Part shown: piece by piece, positions 3,691 to 63,846 of the stretch
Layout: the number at the start of each line of letters is the position of its first letter
Position numbering within the stretch: position 1 is the stretch's first letter
Source of the DNA: a virus
Lineage: Duplodnaviria; Heunggongvirae; Uroviricota; Caudoviricetes
Length of the DNA: 64,000 nucleotides
Virus record (IMG/VR): IMGVR_UViG_2909314774_000001
Strand: one strand, 5' to 3'
The notes under the pieces: generated by a model
The model's database searches: none
What the model was told of the DNA's origin: nothing
What the model saw: the letters and a program-made list of their open reading frames with translations, nothing else
Program-made: the position numbers and the translations under genes

Positions 3691-4396
3691 CAGGAGATCA
3701 AGGATGAAAACTCCGAGAGGCATTCGTAATAACAACCCTGGCAACCTCGACAAAGGTTCGCCGTGGCAGGGGCTAATCGACAACCCTGCCGAACCGCGCT
3801 TTTGCACGTTTAAAGACCCTGTTTGGGGGATTCGTGCGCTGGCGGTGACTCTAATTACCTACCACGATAAACGTCGCGCAAAAGACGGCACAAGTATCGA
3901 TACCATTCGTGAAGTTATTGAACGTTGGGCACCGCCGAATGAAAACAACACTGACGCCTACATTAATGAGGTGTCTAAAGCCGTTGGTGTAACCGCAGAC
4001 ATGATCATCGATCTGCATGATTACGACATTCTTCGACCTTTGGTTGAGGCAATCATTCGCCATGAGAATGGGCGAGGTCCGCTAAAAACGCTGAACACCT
4101 GGTATGCGGCAGAAGTTATTGAGGAAGGTCTGCGTCGAGCTGGCGTCGTTAAGCCGGTGAAAACCGTGAAGGCTGTTCCTGTAACTAAAGAAACTGCAGG
4201 CGCAACTGTTACAGCAGGTATTGGTCTGGCGCAGCTGGCCGATGTTATGCCGCAGGTTTCCGCTGCTATGGATAAAGCACAAGGTCATATCTCTAGCGGG
4301 GATACAGTACGCATCATCTTCGGTATTGCCACTATTGTTGTGGCAGGATTCATTGCCTGGTCGCAGGTAAGAAAACACCAGAAAGGGATGGTCTAA
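3677..4396 (+). CDS. Putative cell-wall hydrolase / endolysin-like protein with C-terminal membrane anchor
   Basis: Conserved-looking N-terminal motif GIRNNNPGNL...W.G and a C-terminal TM helix (IIFGIATIVVAGFIAW); lies between the holin-like and spanin-like genes. Function is inferred from context only. Confidence 0.3.
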   Translation: MDCNNRRSRMKTPRGIRNNNPGNLDKGSPWQGLIDNPAEPRFCTFKDPVWGIRALAVTLITYHDKRRAKDGTSIDTIREVIERWAPPNENNTDAYINEVSKAVGVTADMIIDLHDYDILRPLVEAIIRHENGRGPLKTLNTWYAAEVIEEGLRRAGVVKPVKTVKAVPVTKETAGATVTAGIGLAQLADVMPQVSAAMDKAQGHISSGDTVRIIFGIATIVVAGFIAWSQVRKHQKGMV

Positions 4397-4397
4397 T

Positions 4398-4649
4398 ATG
4401 CTAGGCAGCCTGATGACAAAGCTAAAAGTTGCTTTGATTACGCTGGCTGCCGTTCTTTTCGTTCTTGTCGGCGCTTACACGATGGGCGGGAATGCGGCGC
4501 GACGAGCAATGGAAGAGAAGGCAAAACAGGAAGACAGAAAACGACTTCAAAACACAGTGAAAGTGGTGAATGAGACGAGCAGTAAAATACGTCAGAAAGA
4601 TGCTTCTGCCGTTCATCGTGAGTTGTATGATAAGTGGGTGCGTCATTAA
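4398..4649 (+). CDS. Putative i-spanin (Rz-like)
   Basis: N-terminal TM helix followed by a charged coiled-coil region; position immediately after the putative lysin. Confidence 0.45.
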   Translation: MLGSLMTKLKVALITLAAVLFVLVGAYTMGGNAARRAMEEKAKQEDRKRLQNTVKVVNETSSKIRQKDASAVHRELYDKWVRH

Positions 4650-4785
4650 ACCACAAACAGCCAGCGTGTTGTTCTGCGATGGGGCTGAGCCTATCTATAT
4701 CAGCAATAATGATGTAATGACTGAAGAAACCGAACGCCAAATCCTTTTTCACAATACGATGGGAGAGAGGGTTTGTGGTTGGTGA
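4570..4785 (+). CDS. Putative o-spanin lipoprotein (Rz1-like), overlapping the i-spanin in another frame
   Basis: Signal peptide with lipobox MISGC; small Cys-containing protein; overlapping arrangement is typical of Rz/Rz1 pairs. Confidence 0.4.
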   Translation: MRRAVKYVRKMLLPFIVSCMISGCVIKPQTASVLFCDGAEPIYISNNDVMTEETERQILFHNTMGERVCGW

Positions 4786-4817
4786 TGTCGAAGTTCCCCT
4801 CAAATGAGGGGAACACA

Positions 4818-5339
4818 TTATTCTTCGAACAATTTTTCGATAGATTTTGTAGGATAGAACAAAGAACGCTCGTTGTTACCAACCAGCTGGATAAAGCCTA
4901 AACTTTTATAAAACGCCTTGGCTTTGTCATTTAACGCCTCAACGAAAAGTCCATGAATGCCTACAGCAAGAGATGCATTGTACACAACGCGCATTGCATG
5001 TGTTACAAGCATTGAGCCAAATCCTTGACCTTGAAGGGACTTGTCCAAAGCCAGCCTACCCAAAGTAACACTTGGAACATTCCGATAAGGAACCTTCTTT
5101 TGTTTGCTTCTTGAAGGTAAGGACTCCTTTTCAAAACAACTACCTGACAAAGTGTAATATCCTAACACTTTTGGCCTTTCTTCTTGAGTGCAAAGCACAT
5201 AAGCACGAAGAATTTTTCCCTCATGCTGCCTTTTTAAGTGGTTGGCTAAAAAGGCGTTTAGTGACTCTTCGCCGCAATCAAAACCGTTTAGATCATAATC
5301 TTTCTCTCCAGAGAAAATCTCTATCGTTGTATTGCTCAC
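4818..5339 (-). CDS. GNAT-family acetyltransferase toxin (TacT/AtaT-like)
   Basis: GNAT acetyl-CoA binding region (QGQGFGSML...); immediately downstream of a small RHH/DUF1778-like gene on the same strand, separated by 8 bp. Confidence 0.8.
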   Translation of the reverse strand: MSNTTIEIFSGEKDYDLNGFDCGEESLNAFLANHLKRQHEGKILRAYVLCTQEERPKVLGYYTLSGSCFEKESLPSRSKQKKVPYRNVPSVTLGRLALDKSLQGQGFGSMLVTHAMRVVYNASLAVGIHGLFVEALNDKAKAFYKSLGFIQLVGNNERSLFYPTKSIEKLFEE

Positions 5340-37452: not shown

Positions 37453-38508
37453 CTATTTGCGAGTCTTTGCCTTGCGCAACTCTTCGAGAAGCGCCAGTTC
37501 TTCTTTACTCAACATGACCATTTTGCCTTCTTTTTCGTCAGGCACAACGTCGATAATGTCATCTTGATTCTCATCTGGGAGGCTATATTCCGTCTCATCA
37601 TTATCGATTTTTGTTGATATTTGTGCCTGGCGTAACTTTGGCCGCCTATAGTGGATGACGAAGTAGACCGAGTTTCCGCGCTTAACTTCCGTGTAATCGA
37701 GATATCCTATCTCTCGCAGCTGTTCCATAGCCTTTCTTACCGTCGCATTCTGAGTAATAGTGCGACTTGTCAGATTAAGTCTGGCGCGTAAACGGGCTAG
37801 TGATATTGGTGCCGGATCAGGCGGCAAACTTTCAATAAAAGTATAAAGCGCCTGAGCGGATTCTTTTCTTGAGAGTTCGTTTATAGCCCGGAGTTGCAGA
37901 AGAACCTTTTTGTCGAACTGGTAGAGTTCGAAAATCTTGGGATCTGCTTTCAGTTCGACCGTATCGTGCTTGACACTATATTTTGCCGTTTGCACAAGAT
38001 GCGTTACGTAAAACTCATCAGAGCCTTTGCTACGGAACGAGATGGTATTTGTGGCAATACGGCTTAGCGAACTGTCCAGGCGTTTGCGTAACTTCGCTGA
38101 TGACCTGGCGGTCGGAATGCCACACAGCCTTACAAACTCAACGAACGGCAATGTGACAGTATCGCCAACGACCTTGTGTTTGGCAAACGCGTGGATTATT
38201 CCCACCCACGTTTTAAAGTCGTTATCCATATCAAGCCGAAGGCCAGAGATCCTTATGTCTTCGTACCCTTCGGCTTTTGCCAGAGACAGCTGTTTGAGTT
38301 CAGCAGAGGCATCCATAGAGACCATTTGCCCCTTTCTTCCTCTGGATGTCGATTTCAGCGTCGGAACGAAGAGGCCCAGACGCATCAAAGCAACAGGCTG
38401 AACAGTGTTATTAGTGTTAGGAACCAACGTAACAACTTCGCCTGTCTTTTTATCTGTTTCTGAAAATGCTTCAACGATCGCTATGTTTTTATTGCCGTTT
38501 TCGCTCAT
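37453..38508 (-). CDS. repA: RepA-type plasmid replication initiator (P1 RepA-like)
   Basis: N-terminal ...[16 protein letters not shown]... and ...[25 protein letters not shown]... match my recollection of P1 RepA; flanked by iterons on both sides. Confidence 0.8.
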
Positions 38509-38551
38509 TCCAAATGTCTCTTGTTATTCGACGGCTTTGGTGGCCTTTGCT

Positions 38552-38671
38552 GATTACAGTGGATAGTAGCACTCATCACAGCGGTTATCCTACCGTCTAT
38601 AGTGGTTTTTCTCCTCTCTATAGTGGTTGCTTTGCTCCCTATAGTGGATTATTCGCTCTCTATAGTGGATA
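38552..38671. repeat. Iteron array upstream of repA (origin-proximal)
   Basis: Five direct copies of CTCTATAGTGG[AT]T-like repeats at ~21 bp spacing (38552, 38597, 38617, 38638, 38659). Confidence 0.8.
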
Positions 38672-38699
38672 TCGATCATGTCTGAAGGCAGATGGCACA

Positions 38700-38838
38700 A
38701 CGGTTTGAGGTTGGCGGGGATCTTATTGGGTCTTTATGGGTCTCTTTGGTTCTCTTTGTGATCTGAATTACTGGATCGGGCCTGTGGATAAAAATCAGAG
38801 GATTTCAAGAACAGGTAACTCTACTCTTCTGTGGATAT
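38700..38838. promoter_or_regulatory. Origin core: AT-rich GATC-containing repeats plus DnaA boxes
   Basis: GGATCTTATT / GGGTCTTTAT / GGGTCTCTTT / GTGATCT repeats (GATC at 38719, 38759, 38774); perfect DnaA box TGTGGATAA (reverse of TTATCCACA) at 38784-38792; near-consensus TGTGGATAT at 38830-38838. Confidence 0.7.
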
Positions 38839-38950
38839 TTAAGGACATAAGAATCATGACTAAGAGTAGAGTTGAGATATATCTATGTATATCAGTATGT
38901 TAATGAAGAATTAAGTCATTAAGTTATCCATAAAAGACAATGTGCTCTAC

Positions 38951-39053
38951 TCTCTACAGTGGATATATACAGCTCTCCAGAGTGGTTGTTTTACTCTTCA
39001 TAGCGGTTATTCAGCTCTCTACAGAGGTTTCTTTGCTCTCCATAGTGGATGGC
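38951..39053. repeat. Second upstream iteron array
   Basis: Five direct copies of CTCTMYAGWGGWT-like repeats at ~21 bp spacing (38951, 38973, 38995, 39015, 39037). Confidence 0.7.
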
Positions 39054-39091
39054 AACACCCTTTCAGACCAGTAACCGCAACGGCTAGAGGC

Positions 39092-39165
39092 GATCGGGGA
39101 TCTCTTTGGATCTTCTATTTGATCTTACTTGGGATCTCTTATTTGGATCTATCCAGTGGATAACT
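39092..39165. promoter_or_regulatory. GATC cluster with 13-mer-like AT-rich repeats and a DnaA-box-like site
   Basis: GATC at ~39092, 39100, 39111, 39121, 39133, 39146; repeats GATCTCTTTGG / GATCTTCTATTT / GATCTTACTTGG / GATCTCTTATTTG resemble oriC 13-mers (GATCTnTTnTTTT); AGTGGATAA at 39156. Confidence 0.6.
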
Positions 39166-39250
39166 GGGATAAGTAAAACAGGCAAATGCAGATTAAGGTA
39201 TGCCTAATGAGTTATCGTAGCATCGGCCAATAACTACTGAAAAAACGATT

Positions 39251-39895
39251 ATGGATCTAAAACGCACGCGCTGGGTTCGTCGTCTTGAGGACGGCTCCTA
39301 CACTATCGAATCAAATTCCAACCTGAATAAGCAGAAGTTACTTTGTGATATCTGCGGTATAGCGGCGAAGTGCCCGATCTACGAAACCAGAATTAAACTT
39401 GATAAGGCTGGTGTGAACTTTCATTTGAATAGTTGTATCAGGTACGTTCCATTGCTCGCATTTCGTAAACCGATCATCGGATTGGATGCGCCCTACTTCA
39501 ACACACTCCGTTCAGGAGTAACGTGGCGAGATCGTTTATCACCAGACAAACTGATTTGCCTTGTATCCGCAGATACAGGAAAAATCATTCGTTTTGGGAA
39601 AGTAGACAAGGTTTACTCAGGCCCAGTTGACGAGATGTTGCGGAAACACAGCCGGTTTAATCACCTCTGCATGGGTGGTGAGAAAATCGAGAAGGTTGAA
39701 GAAGTGATCCGCAAATCCTACGGACACTTCCTGACCAAAGATAGCCTGCTCACTGCAATCTACATCAGACATGTAAAACGTGAGTTCGACCTTGAATACC
39801 ATAGCGAAGAAGAACTGAACCTTGTCGATCCACGTCCTAAAGCTGGCGTCATAAGCATAAATGCAGCGCGTAAAAAGCCCACTGACGCGCTGTAA
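39251..39895 (+). CDS. Hypothetical protein
   Basis: 214-codon ORF next to the origin. Confidence 0.5.
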   Translation: MDLKRTRWVRRLEDGSYTIESNSNLNKQKLLCDICGIAAKCPIYETRIKLDKAGVNFHLNSCIRYVPLLAFRKPIIGLDAPYFNTLRSGVTWRDRLSPDKLICLVSADTGKIIRFGKVDKVYSGPVDEMLRKHSRFNHLCMGGEKIEKVEEVIRKSYGHFLTKDSLLTAIYIRHVKREFDLEYHSEEELNLVDPRPKAGVISINAARKKPTDAL

Positions 39896-40150
39896 CCCTC
39901 CAGATCGTATATTGGCGTAGATAGAATCTACGCCCCCTCAAAATAGCTCTCATAGCGTTCTACAGTGATCCTGTCTTATTTTTAGTCATACAGACAAGCA
40001 AAGTTGCGCCACGATAAATAGGTATATACTTACTTATAAATTTTTGTATATTAAGGCGCTCGTTTCATTCCTAACATACCGTTATGCATAGTTGTTTACC
40101 TCCTCATTGCTCTTAGAATTTGTATCAAAATAACCACAAAGGAAAAACAC

Positions 40151-53185: not shown

Positions 53186-53907
53186 GCCTTTCAATCATTT
53201 CCTGCCTGTATTTAATACTTTTCCGCCTGATAGGTTTAGTCAAAATGTAGCCATCGAAACGCAAATGCAACTAAACAGAAGGAGACTTACATGAGTTCGG
53301 TTGAAAATGTAATGACAAATGATGATCTGGATGAGCTGACAGCCATGTTGCAATCACTTGATGAACCAGTAAAAAAAGCCGCACAGGTTGAAAATACTGA
53401 TGATATTGACGATCTGCTGCTCGGCCTCGATGCTGGCGTAGCCATGAGTTCTGATGATGTTGCCGAAGAACTGTTCAATGAAGAAAAAGCAGGTGATTTC
53501 AGCTCTGCTTTAAATGAGTTGGAGTTAGCGCATGAGCCTATAAACGTAATTAACGCTGAAAGTGTTGAATCTGCCGAAAACGAGCCAGAACAATTGGGAT
53601 TGATTGAGGTTGAAGAGTGTGTTGAGGTTAATGATGAATTAAAAGTTCAACAGTCAAATGATAGCAATACAAATAAAAAAGCTCGTGCTGCAAGAGGTCC
53701 TCGTTTTACTTTAAGTGATAAAGATGATTCGTTTTTCAATAAAGCGGGCTTAGAAAAAGATATTTTCTTAGACGCTTACGATAACGCGCCTGTCAAAGCA
53801 AAGGATAAGATATTAAACCTTCTTAATTGGTTTAGCGGAGGTCCAGATATTAGTGTTTACACGGTAATTTCCATGAGTGAAGTGGTCAACAAAAACTGGC
53901 CACCGAG

Positions 53908-55055
<1,148 letters not shown>

Positions 55056-55536
55056 TATGGCACCTGTGTTGTTCTGAGGTGAGCATATCACCTCTGTTCA
55101 GGTGGCCAAATTCAGTAAACCACTTCAGAGACACCTTCTCACAGAAAAGAAGGCTACAAGTAATAGTATTAAGATTGCTTTAATGAGCAATCCAGAAAAA
55201 CCGTATCCGCTTAACACTGCGTCAACTCAGGCTGGGCAAATGATGGCTGTATTTCCAGCGACAGGAATTGCCGTTAGAGGCGGTGGAAATCTAACATTGA
55301 ACGAAGAATCACCGATCGTTAAGAAGTTTGTCGCGGAGTACACTATTGGATGACGTTCCCCTACTGAAAATAAAGCCCATAGAGAGCTTTATAGTGCTGG
55401 GTAAGCCAATCACATACCCAGCACCACAAAAACGCGCCAGAGAGCTTCTCGTTTGCATTTCTGGCGCGTTTTATTTGATTGCCAGACATAAAATCAAATG
55501 CAAAAATAGGTATTTACTTACCTATCGAGAAAGAAG

Positions 55537-56130
55537 ATGATTGCAGCCGAAAAAATCAAACAGCGAAAGCGCGACAACTCTCTTCGTGACCTCTGGAGAA
55601 CACCTGACTGGCTGTTTTCTGCCATTCAACGTTATCTTGGAGTGACATTTGATGTTGACGTTGCCTGCAACAAGGACAATGCAAAGCTGCCTAATTTCAT
55701 AGGCGTTGAGCGTGATGCTTTGAAATCTGAATGGGGACAGCCAGGTACAATTGCCTTCCTCAATCCACCCTACTCCAAAATCTCCCCCTGGATTGATGCG
55801 GCTATACGTGAGCAGGCTCGCGGAGTTACAACAGTGATGCTAATTCCTCAATCCCTAGATACAAAGTGGTATGAGCGTGCAACAGAGTGTGCGAATGAGA
55901 CGATTATTCTGTCTGGTGGCCGCGTAGCGTTTGTCGAGCCTGACGTCAATCTGGGTCAGGTAGAAGTAAACATCAACCCAGGTGGCAGTATGCTCGTTGT
56001 TTTTCGAGGATTCTGTCAGGACGCTGGGCACTCTATAAGCAAGATCCCTTTGGACGTCATGAAAAGTCTGGGAGGGTATGATCCTGCGAATGTGATCAGG
56101 AAAAAAAGACCATCAAAGAAGGCTGCTTAG
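55537..56130 (+). CDS. DNA N6-adenine methyltransferase (phage Dam-like)
   Basis: Catalytic motif NPPYS with the upstream W.TPDWLF segment typical of small phage adenine methyltransferases. Confidence 0.7.
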   Translation: MIAAEKIKQRKRDNSLRDLWRTPDWLFSAIQRYLGVTFDVDVACNKDNAKLPNFIGVERDALKSEWGQPGTIAFLNPPYSKISPWIDAAIREQARGVTTVMLIPQSLDTKWYERATECANETIILSGGRVAFVEPDVNLGQVEVNINPGGSMLVVFRGFCQDAGHSISKIPLDVMKSLGGYDPANVIRKKRPSKKAA

Positions 56131-56151
56131 TTTGTTCTGGCGTCTGTAATT

Positions 56152-56226
56152 AGCCTGCTTCTGTATATATAAATAACTACATATTAATTATTAATATACG
56201 GAAGCAGGCTGTTTTGTATCAGAGAC
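56152..56226. terminator. Long palindromic element / putative terminator (twin of 8729-8791)
   Basis: Stem AGCCTGCTTC...GAAGCAGGCT around an AT-rich loop containing TGTATATATA, followed by GTTTTG. Confidence 0.5.
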
Positions 56227-56291
56227 TCCAGACCTGAACATCACTACAGAATCCACTAGAACCCCTTCCCAGACGCTTTAAAATCGATTTT

Positions 56292-56546
56292 ATGAATCAC
56301 TTTAAGGAAACTAACATGTCATACCCGACTAATGTCGTTGCGCTCGTAGAGAGCGATTTTCTGGCCCAGGCCCGTGAAATGATGAAAGATCGCGAGCAGG
56401 CTTTCAACTTGTACGAATGGGCAATTAAGTGCTTGCATCTTGGGGAGCATCGCGAACTTGTTGAACAGCTTTTAGGTGAGTTGATTAACGAGGTGTTTGC
56501 CTTGAATGTTCAACTACATGGTCGAGAAAATAATCAATCGAAATGA
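56292..56546 (+). CDS. Hypothetical protein
   Basis: 84-codon ORF. Confidence 0.4.
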   Translation: MNHFKETNMSYPTNVVALVESDFLAQAREMMKDREQAFNLYEWAIKCLHLGEHRELVEQLLGELINEVFALNVQLHGRENNQSK

Positions 56547-57130
56547 TAGATAAGTACAAACTATTCATAAAGTGAATTGTAAGTGCTAAGATCTGATAGT
56601 TTCCAGTCGTAGACTGGAGACTCGACCTGATGGGTGGGGGTAAGCGTCACTGGCGTCAGGTTTAAAAAAGCTCACTACCAGCGTAGAACCGGTGCCGTTT
56701 AGGTGTCGGGGAAGGGGGAACCAAAGTGAGCGGAGACAAGGGTCACTTTATGATTGTCGAGTCTGGGGTGTTTCGAGAGGTTGAATCCAGTACTCCCCTT
56801 CATAAAGTGTGGGAAGATCTCGGTTCTGGGGTGCTGTCATCCATAACTTCCCAAGTCTAAGCTGGCAGTAGACTTAGGCCATAACTTTTCAGGTTATGAA
56901 ACGACCAGGTTGGTGAGGGATTTTTATACTCACCTCCCTGGGAGAGTATTACCTGAAAAGACAACCTCTCACTTCGTTCGAGGTGAACTTCACTCACTTC
57001 GTTCGTTCAGTTCAGGTTTATAAAAACCTGTTCTGGGAAGTAATTTGTTTATTTTAATAATTATTAACACGCACGCGTGTGCGCACGCGCGAGGAAAAAA
57101 ATCGGCGCGGCGCTTGATTCAGGAGTTTAT

Positions 57131-57724
57131 ATGACGACGAAGACACCAGCCCGATCGCAAGAAAAAACTCGCAAAAAAGCCAAAAACAAAAATTCTCCCC
57201 GCACCAATTCCACAACGCCTGTCGTAGAGTTCAATCCCCAGCTTAAAACCGTGAAAATCTTCAGTGATGGCTCTTGCCTTAAAAATCCGGGTGGCCCGGG
57301 CGGTTACGGTATAGTTCTCCAGTATCGTGGTGAGGAACGCGAGTTCTCAGATGGTTTTCATAGCACCACCAATAACCGCATGGAGATGATGGGGGCACTT
57401 ATCGGGCTGGAGCGTTTGAAATATCCATGCAACGTTATTTTGCACTCTGATAGCCAGTATCTGAAAAACGGCATGACACAGTGGATGAAATGGTGGAAAC
57501 GCAATGGATGGGTGACTTCTGACAAAAAACCGGTAAAGAATGTTGATCTGTGGAAGCGTCTGGATGAGGCTGCAAGTCGACATAATGTTCGCTGGAAGTG
57601 GGTTAAAGGTCACGCCGGGCATCGTGAAAATGAAATATGTGATCGACTCGCGAAGATCGCAGCTTTTTCCGCAGCAGATATGCCTCACAAGAAAGATATT
57701 GGTTTTGTTTACAACAAGCAGTAA
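57131..57724 (+). CDS. rnhA: Ribonuclease HI with basic N-terminal extension
   Basis: RNase H motifs (FSDGSC...[25 protein letters not shown]); start moved to ATG 57131 (AGGAG 6 nt upstream) to leave the GC-alternating tract upstream. Confidence 0.85.
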
Positions 57725-57869
57725 GTAAGTGTTTACCTATCATTTTAAATCATGTATCTTATCAGCGTCAGGATGACAATGTGTCGGTAAGACACAGTTC
57801 CAGGATGGAACGAGAAAGGCGGCTGGCAATCGCCAGCCGCAACTCTTTCTGACACTGGATGGAGTCCAC

Positions 57870-58364
57870 ATGGCACGTCAAACCTATTTCACTTCTGCAA
57901 CTAAACGTCCTCGTTCACTACGTCAAATTTTGGCCGAATTATTTAGCGGTCGTGTTCTGTCACGTCTTGATGAACTAGAGACTGCCGTTCGGTTGCTGAA
58001 TGAACGTTTAGATAAGCAAGCGTCAGTTGTTGCGAACGTGGGGGCGATTGTTACCTCTGGTTCTTCACGCGAAGCGAAAAGTACACGGCCTTTAGTGAAG
58101 GAGAAAAACAACAAGGACAGTTCGAATGGAAAATTTTCAAAGAAAGAGGCTGAAACCAATGGCCTACGTTCTCATTATAGTTTCACTGGCGACGATAGCC
58201 GTTCCAGCCGGCCAGAGCCTTTTGATGCCGGGTTCATCCATCACCACACCTCCGTCGACGACAATTACCACCACTCCAGTAGAGCGTCCTGTCACTCTGG
58301 ATGGGATGACGGTGGATGCGATACCTCAAGTTCATCCAGTTACTCAGGATCATGCTGTGACTAA
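57870..58364 (+). CDS. Hypothetical protein; 3' half uncertain
   Basis: First ~90 codons look protein-like; the Ser/Cys/Asp-rich tail overlaps the better-looking ORF at 58159-58377. Confidence 0.3.
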   Translation: MARQTYFTSATKRPRSLRQILAELFSGRVLSRLDELETAVRLLNERLDKQASVVANVGAIVTSGSSREAKSTRPLVKEKNNKDSSNGKFSKKEAETNGLRSHYSFTGDDSRSSRPEPFDAGFIHHHTSVDDNYHHSSRASCHSGWDDGGCDTSSSSSYSGSCCD

Positions 58365-58377
58365 GGCGGTTGTATGA
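58159..58377 (+). CDS. Hypothetical small membrane/secreted protein
   Basis: Hydrophobic N-terminus MAYVLIIVSLATIAVPAG followed by a Thr/Pro-rich region. Confidence 0.35.
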   Translation: MAYVLIIVSLATIAVPAGQSLLMPGSSITTPPSTTITTTPVERPVTLDGMTVDAIPQVHPVTQDHAVTKAVV

Positions 58378-58571
58378 ACTGGTTTTCAAATCACTTTGGA
58401 AAAACTTGGCTGGCGATTCTGGCTTTCATAGCTCTCATGGCCGCCGGTTGGGTATCGAACATTGTAAAACTCGTTTGCTCTGGTGATCTCCAGTTTCAGG
58501 CTGGTATGACCTTGGCTCGTGTTGTTGGGATTTTTGTTTTTCCAGTCGGTTCGGTACTTGGTTATTTCTGA
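58374..58571 (+). CDS. Hypothetical small membrane protein
   Basis: 65-codon ORF with two hydrophobic helices. Confidence 0.4.
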   Translation: MNWFSNHFGKTWLAILAFIALMAAGWVSNIVKLVCSGDLQFQAGMTLARVVGIFVFPVGSVLGYF

Positions 58572-58664
58572 CGGTTGTTAGTGCATATGCATTGACCGTC
58601 TTTTCGTAAGCAATTCATGTAACTAGAAAACAACTTGTTTTAACAAATAACAAAAGGAAAGCAC

Positions 58665-59090
58665 ATGTTAGGTTTATTCAAAAAGAAAACTCGTAAAGCT
58701 GTTATCGAGGTCAAAAAAATGGAGAACCGAGATGCGGTTGAAGCCACCGTGTGGGGCGCGTACATGATCTCCTATGCCGATGGCACATGCGACGCAAAGG
58801 AAATTTCCATTCTTGAGAAAACAATTGCAGCTCTGCCTGCGTTTTCTCCGTTTGCTGGTGAGATTGCCCAAATGAGCGCCAATATCCGTGCTCAATACGA
58901 AGCCTCACCGCGCCGCGCTAATGCCCAGGCTTTACGTGAGCTGGCTGATGTGGCCGGGACTAATGATGCAGTAGATGTACTGTGTCTGTGCCTTGATATT
59001 GCCGACCAAGACGGTATTGGCGAACAAGAAGAGCTGGCCCTGAAAAAGATCGCACAGGCGCTTCAGTTGTCACTGGATGCTTATCTCTAA
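58665..59090 (+). CDS. TerB-like domain protein
   Basis: ...YMISYADGTCDAKEISILEK...DVLCLCLDIADQDGIGEQEELALKKIAQAL... resembles TerB-fold proteins. Confidence 0.5.
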   Translation: MLGLFKKKTRKAVIEVKKMENRDAVEATVWGAYMISYADGTCDAKEISILEKTIAALPAFSPFAGEIAQMSANIRAQYEASPRRANAQALRELADVAGTNDAVDVLCLCLDIADQDGIGEQEELALKKIAQALQLSLDAYL

Positions 59091-59248
59091 TGCTTGAGAG
59101 ATTCCGGCTTGTGACCGTCATTGCTCTTCTGGTGATGGCGGTGTTGGTGGATTTTACGGGAAAGATGATGTCTGTCATTTCTGATGGCGTCCTCATTGGT
59201 CTGGCGATCTACTTCGCTTATCCGCTAGTCCGTAAAGCAACGTGTTAA
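59090..59248 (+). CDS. Small hydrophobic protein (52 aa), translationally coupled to the TerB-like gene
   Basis: TAATG overlap with the previous stop; two hydrophobic segments; followed by a hairpin (GACAAGGGCC...GGCCCTTGTG); below the ORF-track length cut-off. Confidence 0.4.
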   Translation: MLERFRLVTVIALLVMAVLVDFTGKMMSVISDGVLIGLAIYFAYPLVRKATC

Positions 59249-59387
59249 TGACAAGGGCCAAATGGCCCTTGTGTTTCGTTGACCGAAATAGAGAGTTTGC
59301 ACCTTTACGTTTAGCTTGCTCCCCTTTTATGCCACATCACAATAAAGCCAATAAGAAAACAACTTGTTTAAGCATTAGGAAAAACAC

Positions 59388-59957
59388 ATGTGCAAGAAAT
59401 GCAAAGCGATAGCTGATGAACAAAACGCCTTATTCGAAGAAATGGATGCTAATGAACTGGTCAAAATGTTAGCCATTCTTCGAGGAATAGAAGACGTTTC
59501 CATATTTGAGAGAGTGGTTACAGCACTTAATTTTGAGTCCACCTTTGAAGAGCCAACTCAGGTTGTAGCTTTAGCACATCATTTCGGTGTTCATTATCTT
59601 GCTGAAAAAGAGCGCGCTGATAAGTTGCAGGCGACTTTGGATATGGTGAGCGAGACTCAACGAACTGATGACACTAACAAGAGTGAGGCGATTATTGCCA
59701 GCAAAGATCGTGAAATTGCTGGGCTTAAATCCTCTCTAACGATGTTGATGTCTGCGTTCAATCTTATGTCTTCTCAGGCGGGTTATAAAATGCCATCACT
59801 AAACAGCGATGATCCGATGGCCGTTCGTCAGCTTTTGGGAGCAATGGCCGACCAACTCGACGACACAAAGAGTCGGCTTGAAGACATGATGCGTGAGTTA
59901 AGCCATCGACATAACCTCGCAACACAGCCACACAAAGCCTTTCAAAGCTCTAATTGA
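59388..59957 (+). CDS. Hypothetical protein (coiled-coil)
   Basis: 189-codon ORF with the conserved upstream palindrome and AAAAACACATG context. Confidence 0.5.
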   Translation: MCKKCKAIADEQNALFEEMDANELVKMLAILRGIEDVSIFERVVTALNFESTFEEPTQVVALAHHFGVHYLAEKERADKLQATLDMVSETQRTDDTNKSEAIIASKDREIAGLKSSLTMLMSAFNLMSSQAGYKMPSLNSDDPMAVRQLLGAMADQLDDTKSRLEDMMRELSHRHNLATQPHKAFQSSN

Positions 59958-60012
59958 TCTGATATGGCCGCATGATCGGCCATATTGTGTTGATAAAAAA
60001 CAAGGATGAAAA

Positions 60013-60294
60013 ATGGCATACGGTACAGGGATTTACAACAATAAAGGAATTAACGTTACTGGCTTCCTTACTCCTATTTTTTTTCTTGATCGATTTACTG
60101 CGTCATCAGGCTCTAAGACGTACTCCAATCCGCCACCGGGTAAATCGCTACATGCCGTGTGGTCATTGATGCCTCTTAACAACGACAACTACATTAATTT
60201 ACCTGTTCCAACAGTTACTATTAATGGAAATACGGTTAGTTGGTCAAATTTATATACGGGGCTTGGTTCTTACATATACACATACTGGGGATAA
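60013..60294 (+). CDS. Hypothetical protein
   Basis: 93-codon ORF. Confidence 0.4.
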   Translation: MAYGTGIYNNKGINVTGFLTPIFFLDRFTASSGSKTYSNPPPGKSLHAVWSLMPLNNDNYINLPVPTVTINGNTVSWSNLYTGLGSYIYTYWG

Positions 60295-60296
60295 TT

Positions 60297-60911
60297 ATGT
60301 TCGGGATGTCAATTACTCAATCAGATGGAAGTTTGTGGATGAGTCCAGAATTTACTCCGCAAAATCTGATTAATAAAGGGACAATGTCTACATCTAAAGG
60401 TTCTGTTTTTCAAACATCAATCCCATCAAACAAATCATGCTTTTTCTTCATAAAAAGCAGTAATAAGGCGAACATGATGTTTATTCATGAGCATAGTAAC
60501 GGATACAATGCTCTCAGATTGCATCAGGTAAATGGTAGCCCCGGAACAATAACAGTTTATGCTTTTTCTGATATGGTGTTACCACATTCTGGCTATGGCA
60601 TTGCCATGTATAACAGCGCAGGCGCAATGGTGTATCACGGTGAGATGATGCCCCTTGATGCGAAACTTATCACTATTTCTGACCCTCAATTTACAATAGA
60701 TATGGGGTATCCATGTGCGGTAATGCCTGCTATGGTTGGGGTATATAACTATAGACGAACCGATTACGACAGACCTGTCTATGTAACAATGACAGGTGCA
60801 ACTGGAAACCAAGTATATAACGGTCAATGGTATTCCGGTAATGTCACATGGGATATTAAGAAGATTTATACAAACAAAATTCTGGTGATAAATACCTCCA
60901 AGTATGATTAG
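60297..60911 (+). CDS. Hypothetical protein
   Basis: Start set at ATG 60297, directly after the previous stop. Confidence 0.4.
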   Translation: MFGMSITQSDGSLWMSPEFTPQNLINKGTMSTSKGSVFQTSIPSNKSCFFFIKSSNKANMMFIHEHSNGYNALRLHQVNGSPGTITVYAFSDMVLPHSGYGIAMYNSAGAMVYHGEMMPLDAKLITISDPQFTIDMGYPCAVMPAMVGVYNYRRTDYDRPVYVTMTGATGNQVYNGQWYSGNVTWDIKKIYTNKILVINTSKYD

Positions 60912-61014
60912 CCAATGCCTTTATTTGAAGGATTGCCTGTTTATTTCTATTTAGTACCTTTTCATTTTTGAAATAATTGCACCATTAAACAAATCACTTC
61001 TTAATGGTGCAATT

Positions 61015-62700
61015 ATGAATACAGCCCTTTCCATCATCGACGATGCCAACTCAAACACTGCTATCGACTATCGGCAGGAAATGAACGTCATCCACGAAAT
61101 TGTGGCCGAGTGCGAGAAAGAGATCGCCTTCATGTATCAGGTACACGACTTCGTTTATGGCGACGAACGCCACAACATGATTAATCGCCTGCTGAGACTA
61201 AACCATCGACCAGATGAAGATCGCTCGCGTTTAAATCGAGGTTGGTTGGATAAAGTCGATCTGGAATGGGTGAAACAGAATATTTGGGCCGAGTACTGGA
61301 GGAAGGTCACGGACATGACTAACGTTTTGCTGATCATGCCAGCTTCCCGTCGAGATGAGTGGCGCGAGCAGTTTATAGAGGGCAAACAGGAAGTCATCAA
61401 AACTGACAGAACCGGCTACCAGATGAAGGTTAAAGAGTTCGTTGGTGTACCGGAGTTCAAAGCAGAAACGGTCATACCCACGATGCTTAATTTGCTGAAT
61501 GACAGGCACAAATATCTCTCTGAGCGCGTGTATGGCTTGTTTAAGGCGCTGAGTCCTGCGCACAAGACAAATAAGACAAACGGTTTCAGCGAACGTCTGA
61601 TAATCGCTGACTGCATTTCTGATTTCTGGCGGGACAGCGTTAGTGTGAACTATCGCAAAGAGGACTATATCGACGATCTGCGTGTCTTGCTTCATTTCTT
61701 CGCGCACAAAGAATTTATTACCATCAACCGCACTGCTGAGGTGCTATCAGCTGCGTATCGGGCAAACGACTGCCAGACCGGTGACTGGATGAACGTCGAT
61801 GGAAATCTAATGCGCGTGAAGATGTTCAAGAACGGCAACGTTCACTTTGAAATACATCCTGACGTGGCCTGGAAGTTGAATGAGGTGCTGGCTTACAGTA
61901 TGCCTGCTGCAATCCCCGCGCCATGTCGCACCGCGCCAAAAACACGGGCACCAAAGCAGTTCGGGTTAATCCAGAAGACGATCTCCGTGCCGGTTCGCAC
62001 TGCGCTTCGTGACGGGCGATTAAGCAAAGACAAAGGCGTATGGTACTTCTCTGATTCAGCTCTCCAGAAGTCGCAGGTGGAAGAGCTTGAGCGCACACTG
62101 AGCTTCATTGGCGGCGTGCAGGAGAAAAAGCACTGGCAGTTCCCGTATGAGATCGGCCATACGCTAAATACGATTGTGGCTACCGGATTAATACCGGATA
62201 CAAAATCACACCAGTTCTACCCTACCCCACGCTTGATTGCTGAGTACGTTGCCAGAGCCACTGAATTGAAGTCTGGTGAGAAGCTGCTGGAGCCTCAAGC
62301 CGGACGTGGGGATCTTCTGGCCTATATCAACGCCGATCTGGAAGATGTTACCTGCATAGAAATCGCACCTCTCTTCGCTGATATCCTGCGCGGAAAAGGG
62401 TATACGAACACGATTTGCTGCGACTTCATAAAGTGGTCTGAGGACAACGTAGGTTATCAGTTCGACAAAATCGTTATGAACCCGCCGTACTCGCTTGGTC
62501 GTCATAGAGAGCACACGCTGGCTGCGCTGGGGCATCTGAAAGTCGGCGGGCGTCTTGTAGCAGTATTGCCGGGCACTGCGCCAATACTGGACTGGATGAC
62601 GATGGATAATTACGTTTATGCCAGAGGGAAGTCGTTTACCAACGAGTTTGAAGACACAGGGATCACAGTCAGCGTATACGTTTTCAAACGCGTTAAATGA
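61015..62700 (+). CDS. Two-domain protein with C-terminal SAM-dependent N6-adenine methyltransferase domain
   Basis: Motif I LLEPQAGRGDL and motif IV NPPYS in the last ~160 residues; ~400 residue N-terminal domain of unknown function. Confidence 0.65.
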   Translation: MNTALSIIDDANSNTAIDYRQEMNVIHEIVAECEKEIAFMYQVHDFVYGDERHNMINRLLRLNHRPDEDRSRLNRGWLDKVDLEWVKQNIWAEYWRKVTDMTNVLLIMPASRRDEWREQFIEGKQEVIKTDRTGYQMKVKEFVGVPEFKAETVIPTMLNLLNDRHKYLSERVYGLFKALSPAHKTNKTNGFSERLIIADCISDFWRDSVSVNYRKEDYIDDLRVLLHFFAHKEFITINRTAEVLSAAYRANDCQTGDWMNVDGNLMRVKMFKNGNVHFEIHPDVAWKLNEVLAYSMPAAIPAPCRTAPKTRAPKQFGLIQKTISVPVRTALRDGRLSKDKGVWYFSDSALQKSQVEELERTLSFIGGVQEKKHWQFPYEIGHTLNTIVATGLIPDTKSHQFYPTPRLIAEYVARATELKSGEKLLEPQAGRGDLLAYINADLEDVTCIEIAPLFADILRGKGYTNTICCDFIKWSEDNVGYQFDKIVMNPPYSLGRHREHTLAALGHLKVGGRLVAVLPGTAPILDWMTMDNYVYARGKSFTNEFEDTGITVSVYVFKRVK

Positions 62701-62761: not shown

Positions 62762-63466
62762 ATGAACAACCTCCAGTTAGAGCATTTTAACGTCACAGGC
62801 CATTCTGATTTTCCTTTCAAGTTTACATTGAAAGGTTATGCAGAGGATGCGGTAGGCCAGATCATTATTGATAAAGGCATCGTTAAGTTTGAGGGGGATT
62901 TTGATGAATCCGCGAAAACATTCATAGACTTCGTTGCCAAACGTTGGAGCGAGCAATGGAAAAACCTGGAAAAGCGCGCCAATGAGTTTGATCGGTTCAT
63001 GGATGCAATGGATACAGCAAAAGAGGCTCTTGATGCCGGGACTCCGTTAGATCTGGAGTCACTTTTCAACGGCGAAGTGGCCTCTGCGATGTTCGCCACC
63101 ATGTTCGCGGGTGAGTTCGTCCGCAGCGGTGCCAAAAACTACCTTGAGCTGGATTACAACGTCCCTGCAATTGGCGATTTCGTCGTTACCATCCAACGCA
63201 AAGAAGGTAAGACGCCAGGTGAACGCGTCGCAGAACTTGAGGCTGTTGTGGATCAGCGTAACGGAGAGTGTGACCGTTTGATCAACGAGCTTCATGCACT
63301 TCGGGAAGAAAGAATATGCGCGGGTAGCAATACACGTAATGCAGCGGATATCTACTTCCAGTTAGTTGAGGAATGCCAGATTCCACCAGGCGGCTCTCTT
63401 GTCGATTACGTCAGACATTTAATGACGGAAGTTAACTCCAGCCATAAAGATGGTGAGGTGCGCTGA
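62762..63466 (+). CDS. Hypothetical protein
   Basis: 234-codon ORF with the conserved AAAAACACATG start context. Confidence 0.5.
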   Translation: MNNLQLEHFNVTGHSDFPFKFTLKGYAEDAVGQIIIDKGIVKFEGDFDESAKTFIDFVAKRWSEQWKNLEKRANEFDRFMDAMDTAKEALDAGTPLDLESLFNGEVASAMFATMFAGEFVRSGAKNYLELDYNVPAIGDFVVTIQRKEGKTPGERVAELEAVVDQRNGECDRLINELHALREERICAGSNTRNAADIYFQLVEECQIPPGGSLVDYVRHLMTEVNSSHKDGEVR

Positions 63467-63846
63467 TGTTTGGCATTGACGCACAGCGTATAGCCGCTTT
63501 TGCAAAAAGCCCTCTTGATAATCCCTTGTCTCGTAGTGAGCAAATGGAGCTGGCAAGGCTTTTTCTTCACATTCAAAAACAGGCAGACGTTTTCAATAAC
63601 ATGCCTGATCAACCTATTCTGGATGGTCACATCCAGATGGTCATTAACAGTCATGAGAAAGGCTGGGCTGCAATCGTCCCCTGCACAATTACATACAAGT
63701 TGGCGAAAGAGGTTCAAGAGTTTCGAAAAGTCAGCGTCGAATCAGAGTCTACCAAAGCCGCAATAAACACTCTTATTCGCATGGGGTTCACATGGGACGG
63801 TGGAGCTTACTGGCAAGCACCTCACCCCATTTTATCCGGCAATTAG
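63466..63846 (+). CDS. Hypothetical protein
   Basis: 126-codon ORF, start overlaps the previous stop. Confidence 0.45.
   Translation: MFGIDAQRIAAFAKSPLDNPLSRSEQMELARLFLHIQKQADVFNNMPDQPILDGHIQMVINSHEKGWAAIVPCTITYKLAKEVQEFRKVSVESESTKAAINTLIRMGFTWDGGAYWQAPHPILSGN

Follow-up and report, generated by a model that had tools for sequence, protein, structure and literature searches.

What two methyltransferase genes with no nuclease partner do for the element that carries them, and what the long N-terminal part of the larger one adds, is the question raised by the locus described here. The genes lie in a 64,000-nucleotide stretch of virus DNA (Caudoviricetes; IMG/VR record IMGVR_UViG_2909314774_000001), the whole of which is called the window below. 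An earlier note, made from the letters of the window, had located a small Dam-like enzyme and a 561-amino-acid (561-aa) protein with methyltransferase motifs, and both open reading frames (ORFs) were found on the plus strand in the ORF listing of 53–64 kb, at 55537–56130 and 61015–62700 (the last coordinate includes the stop codon). At a probability of roughly 0.55, both are read here as orphan DNA adenine methyltransferases with the DNA of the element itself as their target, the larger being a compact anti-restriction protein that carries a DUF4942 module. An anti-restriction or replication-linked role is a reasonable proposal for both enzymes.

Over 7.9 kb the region shared 99.9% identity with the E. 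coli plasmid pAVS0223-B (108.6 kb, IncFIB, non-mobilizable); identity was 95.6–98.1% with Escherichia phages CMS-2020a, Cyrano and PhiR41_1 and 83% with Salmonella phage SSU5. By its near-identity to the plasmid together with the phage matches, the window is assigned to an SSU5/pHCM2-type phage-plasmid of E. coli, of which it forms part. Phages Cyrano, CMS-2020a and SSU5 also carry both methyltransferase genes. In the reference plasmid the small gene is labelled 'phage N-6-adenine-methyltransferase' and the large gene 'DUF4942 domain-containing protein', which is also the RefSeq name of the 561-aa protein; SSU5 records label the larger gene 'putative DNA modification methylase'.

The 561-aa protein was matched over its full length by PHROG 6263 'DNA methyltransferase' (E 7e-300), and was modelled by AlphaFold2 with a predicted local distance difference test score (pLDDT) of 83 and a predicted template modelling score (pTM) of 0.71; the N-terminal 330 residues alone gave a pLDDT of 81.5. 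Three parts were distinguished: an N-terminal module (residues 1–320, 61015–61974) recognised by its Pfam DUF4942 match, a connector forming a small alpha/beta region (residues 321–395, 61975–62199) delimited by secondary structure and conservation, and a gamma-type amino-methyltransferase core of about 165 aa (residues 396–561, 62200–62697) assigned from profiles and motifs. The earlier note had described one N-terminal domain of about 400 residues, not placed in any family. The region is there, divided into a module of about 320 residues and a connector of about 75; the statement on families was wrong, because DUF4942 (PF13708) was matched at residues 140–295 (nucleotides 61432–61899) with E 1.7e-20 and 74 bits against a cutoff of 25. 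The same domain was matched in all 28 aligned homologues.

Conservation was read from an alignment of these 28 homologues (A1) and from a wider set of 128 cluster representatives that are 29–35% identical to the query. Within the core, an HQFYPTP sequence resembling motif X (residues 399–405, nucleotides 62209–62229) is followed by motif I, LLEPQAGRG (residues 424–432, nucleotides 62284–62310), and by motif IV, NPPY (residues 489–492, nucleotides 62479–62490; NPPYS at 489–493). Further features are the acidic E449 after strand 2, D470-F471 and H500. In the family the pattern Q-F-Y-P-T-P, E-P-x-A-G-x-G and N-P-P-Y/F is invariant or nearly so. As these motifs, among them the LLEPQAGRG and NPPYS to which the earlier note had drawn attention near the C terminus, are kept in the 128 representatives at so low an identity, they are conserved features and not chance resemblances. 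The chain stops about 70 residues past NPPY, too short a stretch to hold a C-terminal recognition domain of the TaqI type. The connector is less conserved, with G366, F376, Y378, G391 and P394 kept, and it goes with the methyltransferase half, phrog_9133 covering residues 328–560 as a single unit.

A profile search with the N-terminal module returned 1,585 cluster representatives, 397 of them at E ≤ 1e-30. Among the best 150 of the 1,585, nearly all were 510–580 aa long with the module at the N terminus, which makes the fusion a fixed architecture for the clade. Hits of 274–430 aa were considered as stand-alone modules within the close family and were rejected as truncations: one (P0123) sits at the end of a contig, and the rest are frameshifted or break off within the connector. 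The fusion is best regarded as an architectural variant among the orphan phage DNA adenine methyltransferases, uncharacterised but already catalogued in PHROG 6263, Pfam and RefSeq.

When the family profile was compared with the PDB, M.TaqI (4.3e-4), EcoR124 HsdM (5.4e-4) and the site-specific adenine methyltransferase 7vru (1.1e-3) ranked above the Erm/KsgA ribosomal RNA (rRNA) methyltransferases (6–7e-3). Using hhalign, residues 387–519 of the window protein were aligned with residues 79–228 of P1 DarB (94.8% probability, E 5.5e-8). PHROG profiles of giant phage proteins (2,200–3,900 positions) matched residues 397–520, and the core was found by tblastn inside a 3,421-aa 'DdrB-like ParB' polyvalent protein of a Pseudoalteromonas phage. 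The best PADLOC defence-system profile for the core was mad2 of MADS (E 5e-15, residues 394–523), while the Type IIG profile matched weakly (E 1.3e-3) and in the methyltransferase part only. The EcoKI/TaqI-like adenine methyltransferases of polyvalent proteins have been described as having an N-terminal TP helix and NPP(Y/F) (Iyer et al. 2017, PMC5512222), and this signature is found in the window core, with the linear order X - I - IV, the TP helix before motif I, and NPPY. The earlier note's classing of both proteins as amino-methyltransferases of the DNA-methyltransferase type was thus supported, for the small one by PF05869 and TIGR01712 (below) and for the large one by the M.TaqI/HsdM, DarB and mad2 profile matches.

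On its motifs and profile matches, the core probably belongs to the known gamma-class EcoKI/TaqI/DarB-like group, while failing the accessory features of each characterised subgroup with which it was compared. The motif order X-I-II-III-IV, the TP helix before motif I and NPPY are shared with M.TaqI and with HsdM (EcoKI/EcoR124). Unlike M.TaqI, the window protein has no C-terminal recognition domain; unlike HsdM, it has no HsdS partner; and it differs from both in a core of only about 165 aa preceded by DUF4942, a domain seen on none of the characterised methyltransferases found in these searches. The DarB-type domains of polyvalent proteins resemble it in having a homologous methyltransferase core, which PHROG and tblastn matches place within phage proteins of 2,000–3,900 aa, in being borne by mobile elements and in their presumed counter-restriction role (PMC5512222). 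In the DarB-like dyad the methyltransferase is joined C-terminally to a superfamily 2 (SF2) helicase and N-terminally to LPD36 (PMC5512222), whereas the window protein consists of two modules rather than a giant multi-domain chain and ends after the methyltransferase core, so that it has no SF2 (SWI2/SNF2) helicase; it also shows no sign of virion packaging. Mad2, which is needed for N6-methyladenine (m6A) methylation at TCAGNNNNTCC (bioRxiv 10.1101/2023.03.30.534895), is comparable in layout, being about 490 aa long with its methyltransferase C-terminal; only the core aligns, however, and mad2 belongs to a chromosomal defence island whereas the window gene is on a phage-plasmid. No PADLOC match to other mad genes was obtained in the 8 flanking ORFs scanned. 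M.EcoGIX and M.BceJIII are single-strand-specific orphan methyltransferases of leading regions, proposed to protect entering DNA, and M.EcoGIX is a beta-class enzyme with DPPY (PMC7736820). They are alike in being orphan methyltransferases of mobile elements, and their leading-region habitat is common to DUF4942 proteins; kinship with M.EcoGIX was rejected, as its beta-class DPPY stands against the gamma order and NPPY of the window protein.

The smaller gene (55537–56130, plus strand) encodes a 197-aa phage-type Dam, a small N6-adenine DNA methyltransferase of the T1/VT2 type. In the profile search that the earlier note had proposed as a check, the protein scored above the cutoffs of both Pfam Dam PF05869 (131.8 bits, cutoff 28.1, E 2.5e-38) and the equivalog TIGR01712 'phage N-6-adenine-methyltransferase' (phage_N6A_met; 113.9 bits, cutoff 97.05). 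It was also matched by phrog_111 'DNA methyltransferase' (1.6e-65) and by PADLOC orphan methyltransferase profiles (1e-12). Its catalytic NPPY (residues 76–79, nucleotides 55762–55773) lies within FLNPPYS. Homologues were found by tblastn in about 2,000 phage records; the nearest outside the SSU5 group are in Vibrio phages (40–42% identity) and in Stx-converting and lambdoid phages (39%). A sequence search for a homologue of solved structure detected none. These matches place the protein in a well-known family, as an ordinary phage Dam. The Dams of coliphage T1, Stx-phage VT2/933W and HP1 are specific for GATC, and share with the window enzyme their small size, an NPPY near the N terminus, a phage-borne gene and the lack of a nuclease partner; the latter enzyme differs from the Stx-phage Dams in its 39% identity and in its place in the replication module of a phage-plasmid, 410 bp past an insertion sequence (IS). 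Its target is probably GATC or a closely related site.

Across the whole window GATC was observed 266 times, against 245 expected from a mononucleotide model and 312 from a Markov model (observed/expected 0.85–1.09), a ratio comparable to that of other 4-bp palindromes. Enrichment or avoidance of GATC was rejected as a clue to Dam specificity, none being seen across the window. The origin had been called GATC-rich in the earlier note, which proved right locally and does not extend to the window at large. The bin 38001–40000 holds 20 GATC sites against 3–14 in the remaining bins, and the single cluster of the window, at about 38850–39400, includes GATC-containing repeats (GGATCT...) at about 39090–39150. 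A probable plasmid replication origin is predicted from the sequence at 38560–39170, where two sets of iteron-like CTATAGTGG repeats and DnaA-box-like TGTGGATAA/TTATCCA sequences were read directly, and a rep-sized ORF (37453–38508, minus strand) adjoins this region. The layout presumably resembles that of the Dam-dependent P1 oriR and of oriC. The GATC repeats at the origin are possibly a link between Dam methylation and replication.

Both enzymes appear as orphans. No nuclease, restriction-modification or defence match was obtained in the 8 flanking ORFs with Pfam, NCBIfam, PHROGs and PADLOC. No nuclease domain was found in either methyltransferase, and no HsdS-like neighbour of the fusion gene, with Pfam, PHROGs and PADLOC. 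Nor was a restriction enzyme found near four distant homologues (33–39% identity) in prophage and phage early regions. The absence of a nuclease partner, which the earlier note had claimed, held both for the neighbours and for these four contexts. In one of the latter (L002, 6948–14320) the homologue stands between a lambda-P-like gene and a 699-aa 5-methylcytosine (m5C) methyltransferase, an N6_N4 methyltransferase being close by. The homologue of a Variovorax prophage (L003, 10001–12936) is immediately followed by an N6_N4 methyltransferase, whose start shares nucleotide 11749 with the end of the fusion gene, and in a third (L005, 7655–11638) the homologue is close to a D12-class Dam and umuDC. 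These three prophage clusters suggest multi-methyltransferase anti-restriction cassettes. In the fourth (L006) the homologue is close to the terminase of a Dolphis-like phage. Small genes overlap the fusion start in L002, L003, L006 and L009; a conserved partner gene was rejected, as the products are not homologous across contexts, with the exception of two near-identical Dolphis-like ones. The connector and methyltransferase part are also homologous in a 543-aa protein of Pseudomonas phage MR13 (L007, 1969–3600), labelled 'restriction alleviation protein, Lar family', and in a 562-aa protein of phage Dolphis (L009, 1936–3624), labelled 'RE endonuclease'. Both labels look like unsupported automatic annotation.

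The N-terminal module is itself modelled confidently, and no solved structural relative of it was found. A Foldseek search of it against the viral predicted structures of BFVD returned only two uncharacterised proteins (247 and 271 aa). Its identification as a nuclease, as another enzyme or as a known DNA-binding domain was left without support by Pfam (E ≤ 10), PDB profiles (E ≤ 10) and BFVD, and no structural match to nucleases was obtained. Within the searchable literature four papers mention DUF4942, each in passing. Residues W95, T102, W116, S180, H183, T185, N186, D221, R223, W258, D262, H277 and N289 are invariant or nearly so in the 128 representatives, and in the 28-sequence alignment Q119 is invariant as well. 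The module is 63–80% identical when SSU5 proteins of the E. coli and Klebsiella types are compared, against 46–54% for the C-terminal half. The two halves also recombine. Residues 1–300 of P0044 are 86–96% identical to the window protein and residues 301–561 are 99–100% identical to the Klebsiella-type P0078; taken with P0046, also from A1, the mosaics combine residues 1–300 of E. coli type (86–96%) with residues 301–561 of Klebsiella type (87–100% to P0078). They show that in the SSU5 lineage recombination has taken place where the module ends; in P0044 the joint lies at about residue 300, N-terminal to the connector.

The module also occurs alone. Residues 1–330 matched at least 5,000 plasmids by tblastn, 3,650 of them conjugative. 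An IncI-gamma/K1 plasmid carries a stand-alone DUF4942 protein of 282 aa between ardA/psiB/psiA and nikA-oriT, and a pOXA-48-like IncL/M plasmid carries one of 286 aa in its leading region, alongside ssb and an antirestriction gene; on IncHI2 plasmids it is the fused form (563 aa) that is found. The 282-aa and 286-aa proteins are matched by DUF4942 over their full length (E about 1e-50) and have no methyltransferase domain. They are homologous to window residues about 46–301 (the tblastn span) at about 20% identity, and end at the position of P297-x-A-I-P301, which closes the window module (motif P-x-A-I/L-P). Residues W95, T102, W116, Q119, S180, T185, N186, H277 and N289 are retained in them; H183, R223, W258, D262 and E279 are not. 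A further stand-alone DUF4942 protein (L0010, SRL island) is found in CP4-type islands near KlcA/YfjX-, RadC- and CbtA-type genes (PMC6980539). On the IncL/M plasmid (L013) a DGQHR-domain (DndB-like) protein is encoded at 3888–4859 in the leading region, about 0.9 kb upstream of the stand-alone DUF4942 gene, and an IS1/IS10 pair lies just upstream of it.

A number of observations weigh against reading both proteins as adenine methyltransferases that act on the element's own DNA. GATC counts across the window lie within expectation, so that composition is uninformative on Dam specificity. The 561-aa protein alone fell below every Pfam methyltransferase threshold, including that of N6_Mtase, and among the 28 family members N6_Mtase was matched in 8 and MTS in 10. 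NPP(Y/F) is also found in N2-methylguanosine (m2G) RNA methyltransferases and in glutamine methyltransferases. In Foldseek the class I methyltransferases PmtA, TrmN, Trm11, HsdM, CamA and M.TaqI scored about equally, so DNA, RNA, lipid and protein methyltransferases are not separated by fold. The N-terminal module is near-neutral (isoelectric point 6.6) and has no recognisable DNA-binding fold. The gene table in which the IncL/M plasmid shows no annotated methyltransferase is, like other such tables, incomplete by design. In the searchable literature no functional or experimental data were found on either gene, on DUF4942, on SSU5/pHCM2 methyltransferases or on phage-plasmid methylation. With the profile evidence set against the ambiguity of Pfam and fold, the C-terminal part is likely to be an N6-adenine DNA methyltransferase; we infer DNA as its substrate and N6-adenine as its target.

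Were the 561-aa protein instead to methylate RNA (m2G or m6A, in rRNA or transfer RNA) or protein for host takeover, the MTS matches (an rRNA m2G family), the Erm/KsgA-type profile matches at E 6e-3 and the presence of PmtA, TrmN and Trm11 among the top Foldseek matches would be accounted for, and the translation-related metG of related plasmids would fit as well. Its best sequence-profile matches are nevertheless DNA enzymes (M.TaqI, HsdM, 7vru, DarB and mad2), the Q-[FY]-[FY]-x-T-P helix before motif I is an EcoKI/TaqI-type signature, the gene adjoins other DNA methyltransferases in prophages, and the same core is found within polyvalent anti-restriction-type proteins, so this alternative is judged highly improbable. 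No less improbable is a cryptic enzyme such as a nuclease in the N-terminal module, by which the protein would become a Type IIG-like restriction-modification or exclusion enzyme defending the lysogen. The invariant polar residues S180, H183, T185, N186, D221, D262, H277, E279 and N289 do have an enzyme-like look, the model shows a low-confidence loop at residues 183–186 and an alpha-beta-beta-beta-alpha element at residues 240–295 with D262 and H277-x-E279, and to these may be added the 'RE endonuclease' label of a homologue in one phage record and the weak Type IIG match, confined to the methyltransferase part. The label, however, is without supporting evidence, H183, R223, W258, D262 and E279 are missing from the stand-alone DUF4942 proteins, and a leading-region or early-region setting suits anti-defence better than defence.

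The main rival takes DUF4942 to be an N-terminal target-recognition or DNA-binding domain, its stand-alone forms being specificity-subunit-like partners that act in trans. In its favour, the core ends soon after NPPY and has no C-terminal recognition domain; the fusion architecture is fixed across about 1,500 cluster representatives, with no genuine stand-alone form seen in the close family; and the full-length pTM of 0.71 may point to a defined inter-domain arrangement. This explanation is still considered unlikely. Classical recognition domains are the variable part of methyltransferases, whereas this module surpasses the catalytic half in conservation and holds polar residues that do not vary across the family. 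It is not basic and shows no similarity to a known recognition domain or to HsdS. A six-frame scan of the IncL/M plasmid found no credible ORF with (D/N/S)PP(Y/F/W), and with no methyltransferase annotated there either, the stand-alone DUF4942 protein appears to be independent of a plasmid-borne amino-methyltransferase. The module is argued to be more than a recognition domain on three grounds: its conservation equals or exceeds that of the catalytic half, it recombines as a unit, and it occurs alone, the last being the most telling. DUF4942 is probably not a classical specificity domain but a module that acts autonomously at early entry. As a tentative extension, DUF4942 could be a new autonomous establishment or anti-defence family with a fold without solved relative, found alone in thousands of conjugative plasmids, in their leading regions (IncI, IncL/M and others), and in CP4-type islands, and fused in SSU5-type phage-plasmids, IncHI2 plasmids and numerous prophages, in which case the fusion would be a Rosetta-stone link to protective methylation.

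On the preferred reading of two self-methylating orphan enzymes, methylation of the element's own DNA would let it evade host restriction. The Dam would keep a fast-replicating or newly entered genome methylated, would shield it from GATC-directed restriction, and would hold the GATC-repeat origin methylated independently of the host Dam. The connector and minimal core of the fusion (the C-terminal 240 residues) would modify incoming or replicating DNA and so mark the DNA of the element as 'self', and host systems that sense methylation, namely restriction-modification and possibly MADS- or BREX-like systems, would spare the marked DNA. The DUF4942 half would either contribute its own, autonomous activity in establishment or anti-defence, or anchor the enzyme on DNA that is entering or replicating. 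Any activity of DUF4942, like the protective role and early expression, is something that we infer.

In the reference plasmid both genes lie within a co-oriented block that holds nrdA, nrdB, thymidylate synthase (thyA), dihydrofolate reductase (dhfr), a DnaQ-like 3'-5' exonuclease, rnhA (RNase HI) and a TerB-family gene; the block is a replication and nucleotide-metabolism module. Upstream of dam an IS3-family insertion sequence of 1,250 bp (53878–55127, minus strand) was delimited by mapping its junctions against the uninterrupted plasmid L001. It has terminal inverted repeats TGAAGTGGT... and a 3-bp target duplication, and its transposase ORFs are at 53908–54726 and 54753–55091 on the minus strand; the insertion is annotated 'IS3 family transposase' in H19, and we take it to be IS911-like. 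It interrupts a conserved phrog_5235 gene, of which pieces remain at 53291–53877 and 55128–55353 and which is uninterrupted in pAVS0223-B (WP_053902537.1, 269 aa). The insertion lies 410 bp upstream of dam and is not part of the methyltransferase genes; it might affect dam transcription.

Directly upstream of the fusion gene, an ORF at 60240–60911 (plus strand, 223 aa) is matched by phrog_425 'membrane associated protein', in the moron category. Its DNA shares 78–80% identity with genes from JenP1, JenP2 and BRET, which are unrelated siphophages, and by these matches its product is probably a horizontally shared moron of the superinfection-exclusion type. The rnhA ORF (57077–57724, plus strand) is listed with a GTG start and 215 aa; the RNase H domain spans only residues 58–196 and is preceded by a basic N-terminal extension of about 55 residues, and the real start may lie further downstream than the listed GTG. 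After the fusion gene, two genes occupy 62762–63846 (plus strand), encoding 234 aa (phrog_8364) and 126 aa (phrog_10451), the start of the second overlapping the end of the first. A DrmE_N match in the ORF at 62762–63466 (E 0.009, 15.9 bits against a cutoff of 27, no PADLOC support) was rejected as noise.

The finding is largely ordinary, because the Dam family is well known and the fusion is already catalogued; both methyltransferases are annotated in hundreds of near-identical records, and two such enzymes are to be expected in a temperate phage or phage-plasmid. The fused enzyme is an uncharacterised methyltransferase architecture in which no recognition domain was recognised in the comparisons made. 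The methylation motifs of the two enzymes would aid the reading of methylomes from strains of E. coli, Salmonella and Klebsiella that harbour elements of the SSU5/pHCM2 type. Conjugative plasmids' leading regions are now recognised as anti-defence hubs, and DUF4942 is among the many unnamed leading-region proteins of clinically important plasmids (IncI and pOXA-48-like IncL/M), occurring in fused form on IncHI2. Its fusion to a methyltransferase in phage-plasmids provides the concrete hypothesis that DUF4942 helps to establish incoming DNA. If the family is indeed autonomous, the fusion would place its action on, or at, DNA that is coming in, within the pathway of protective methylation. What interest remains is thus in DUF4942, a protein widespread in leading regions, with an orphan fold and a link to DNA methylation; it is a modest lead.

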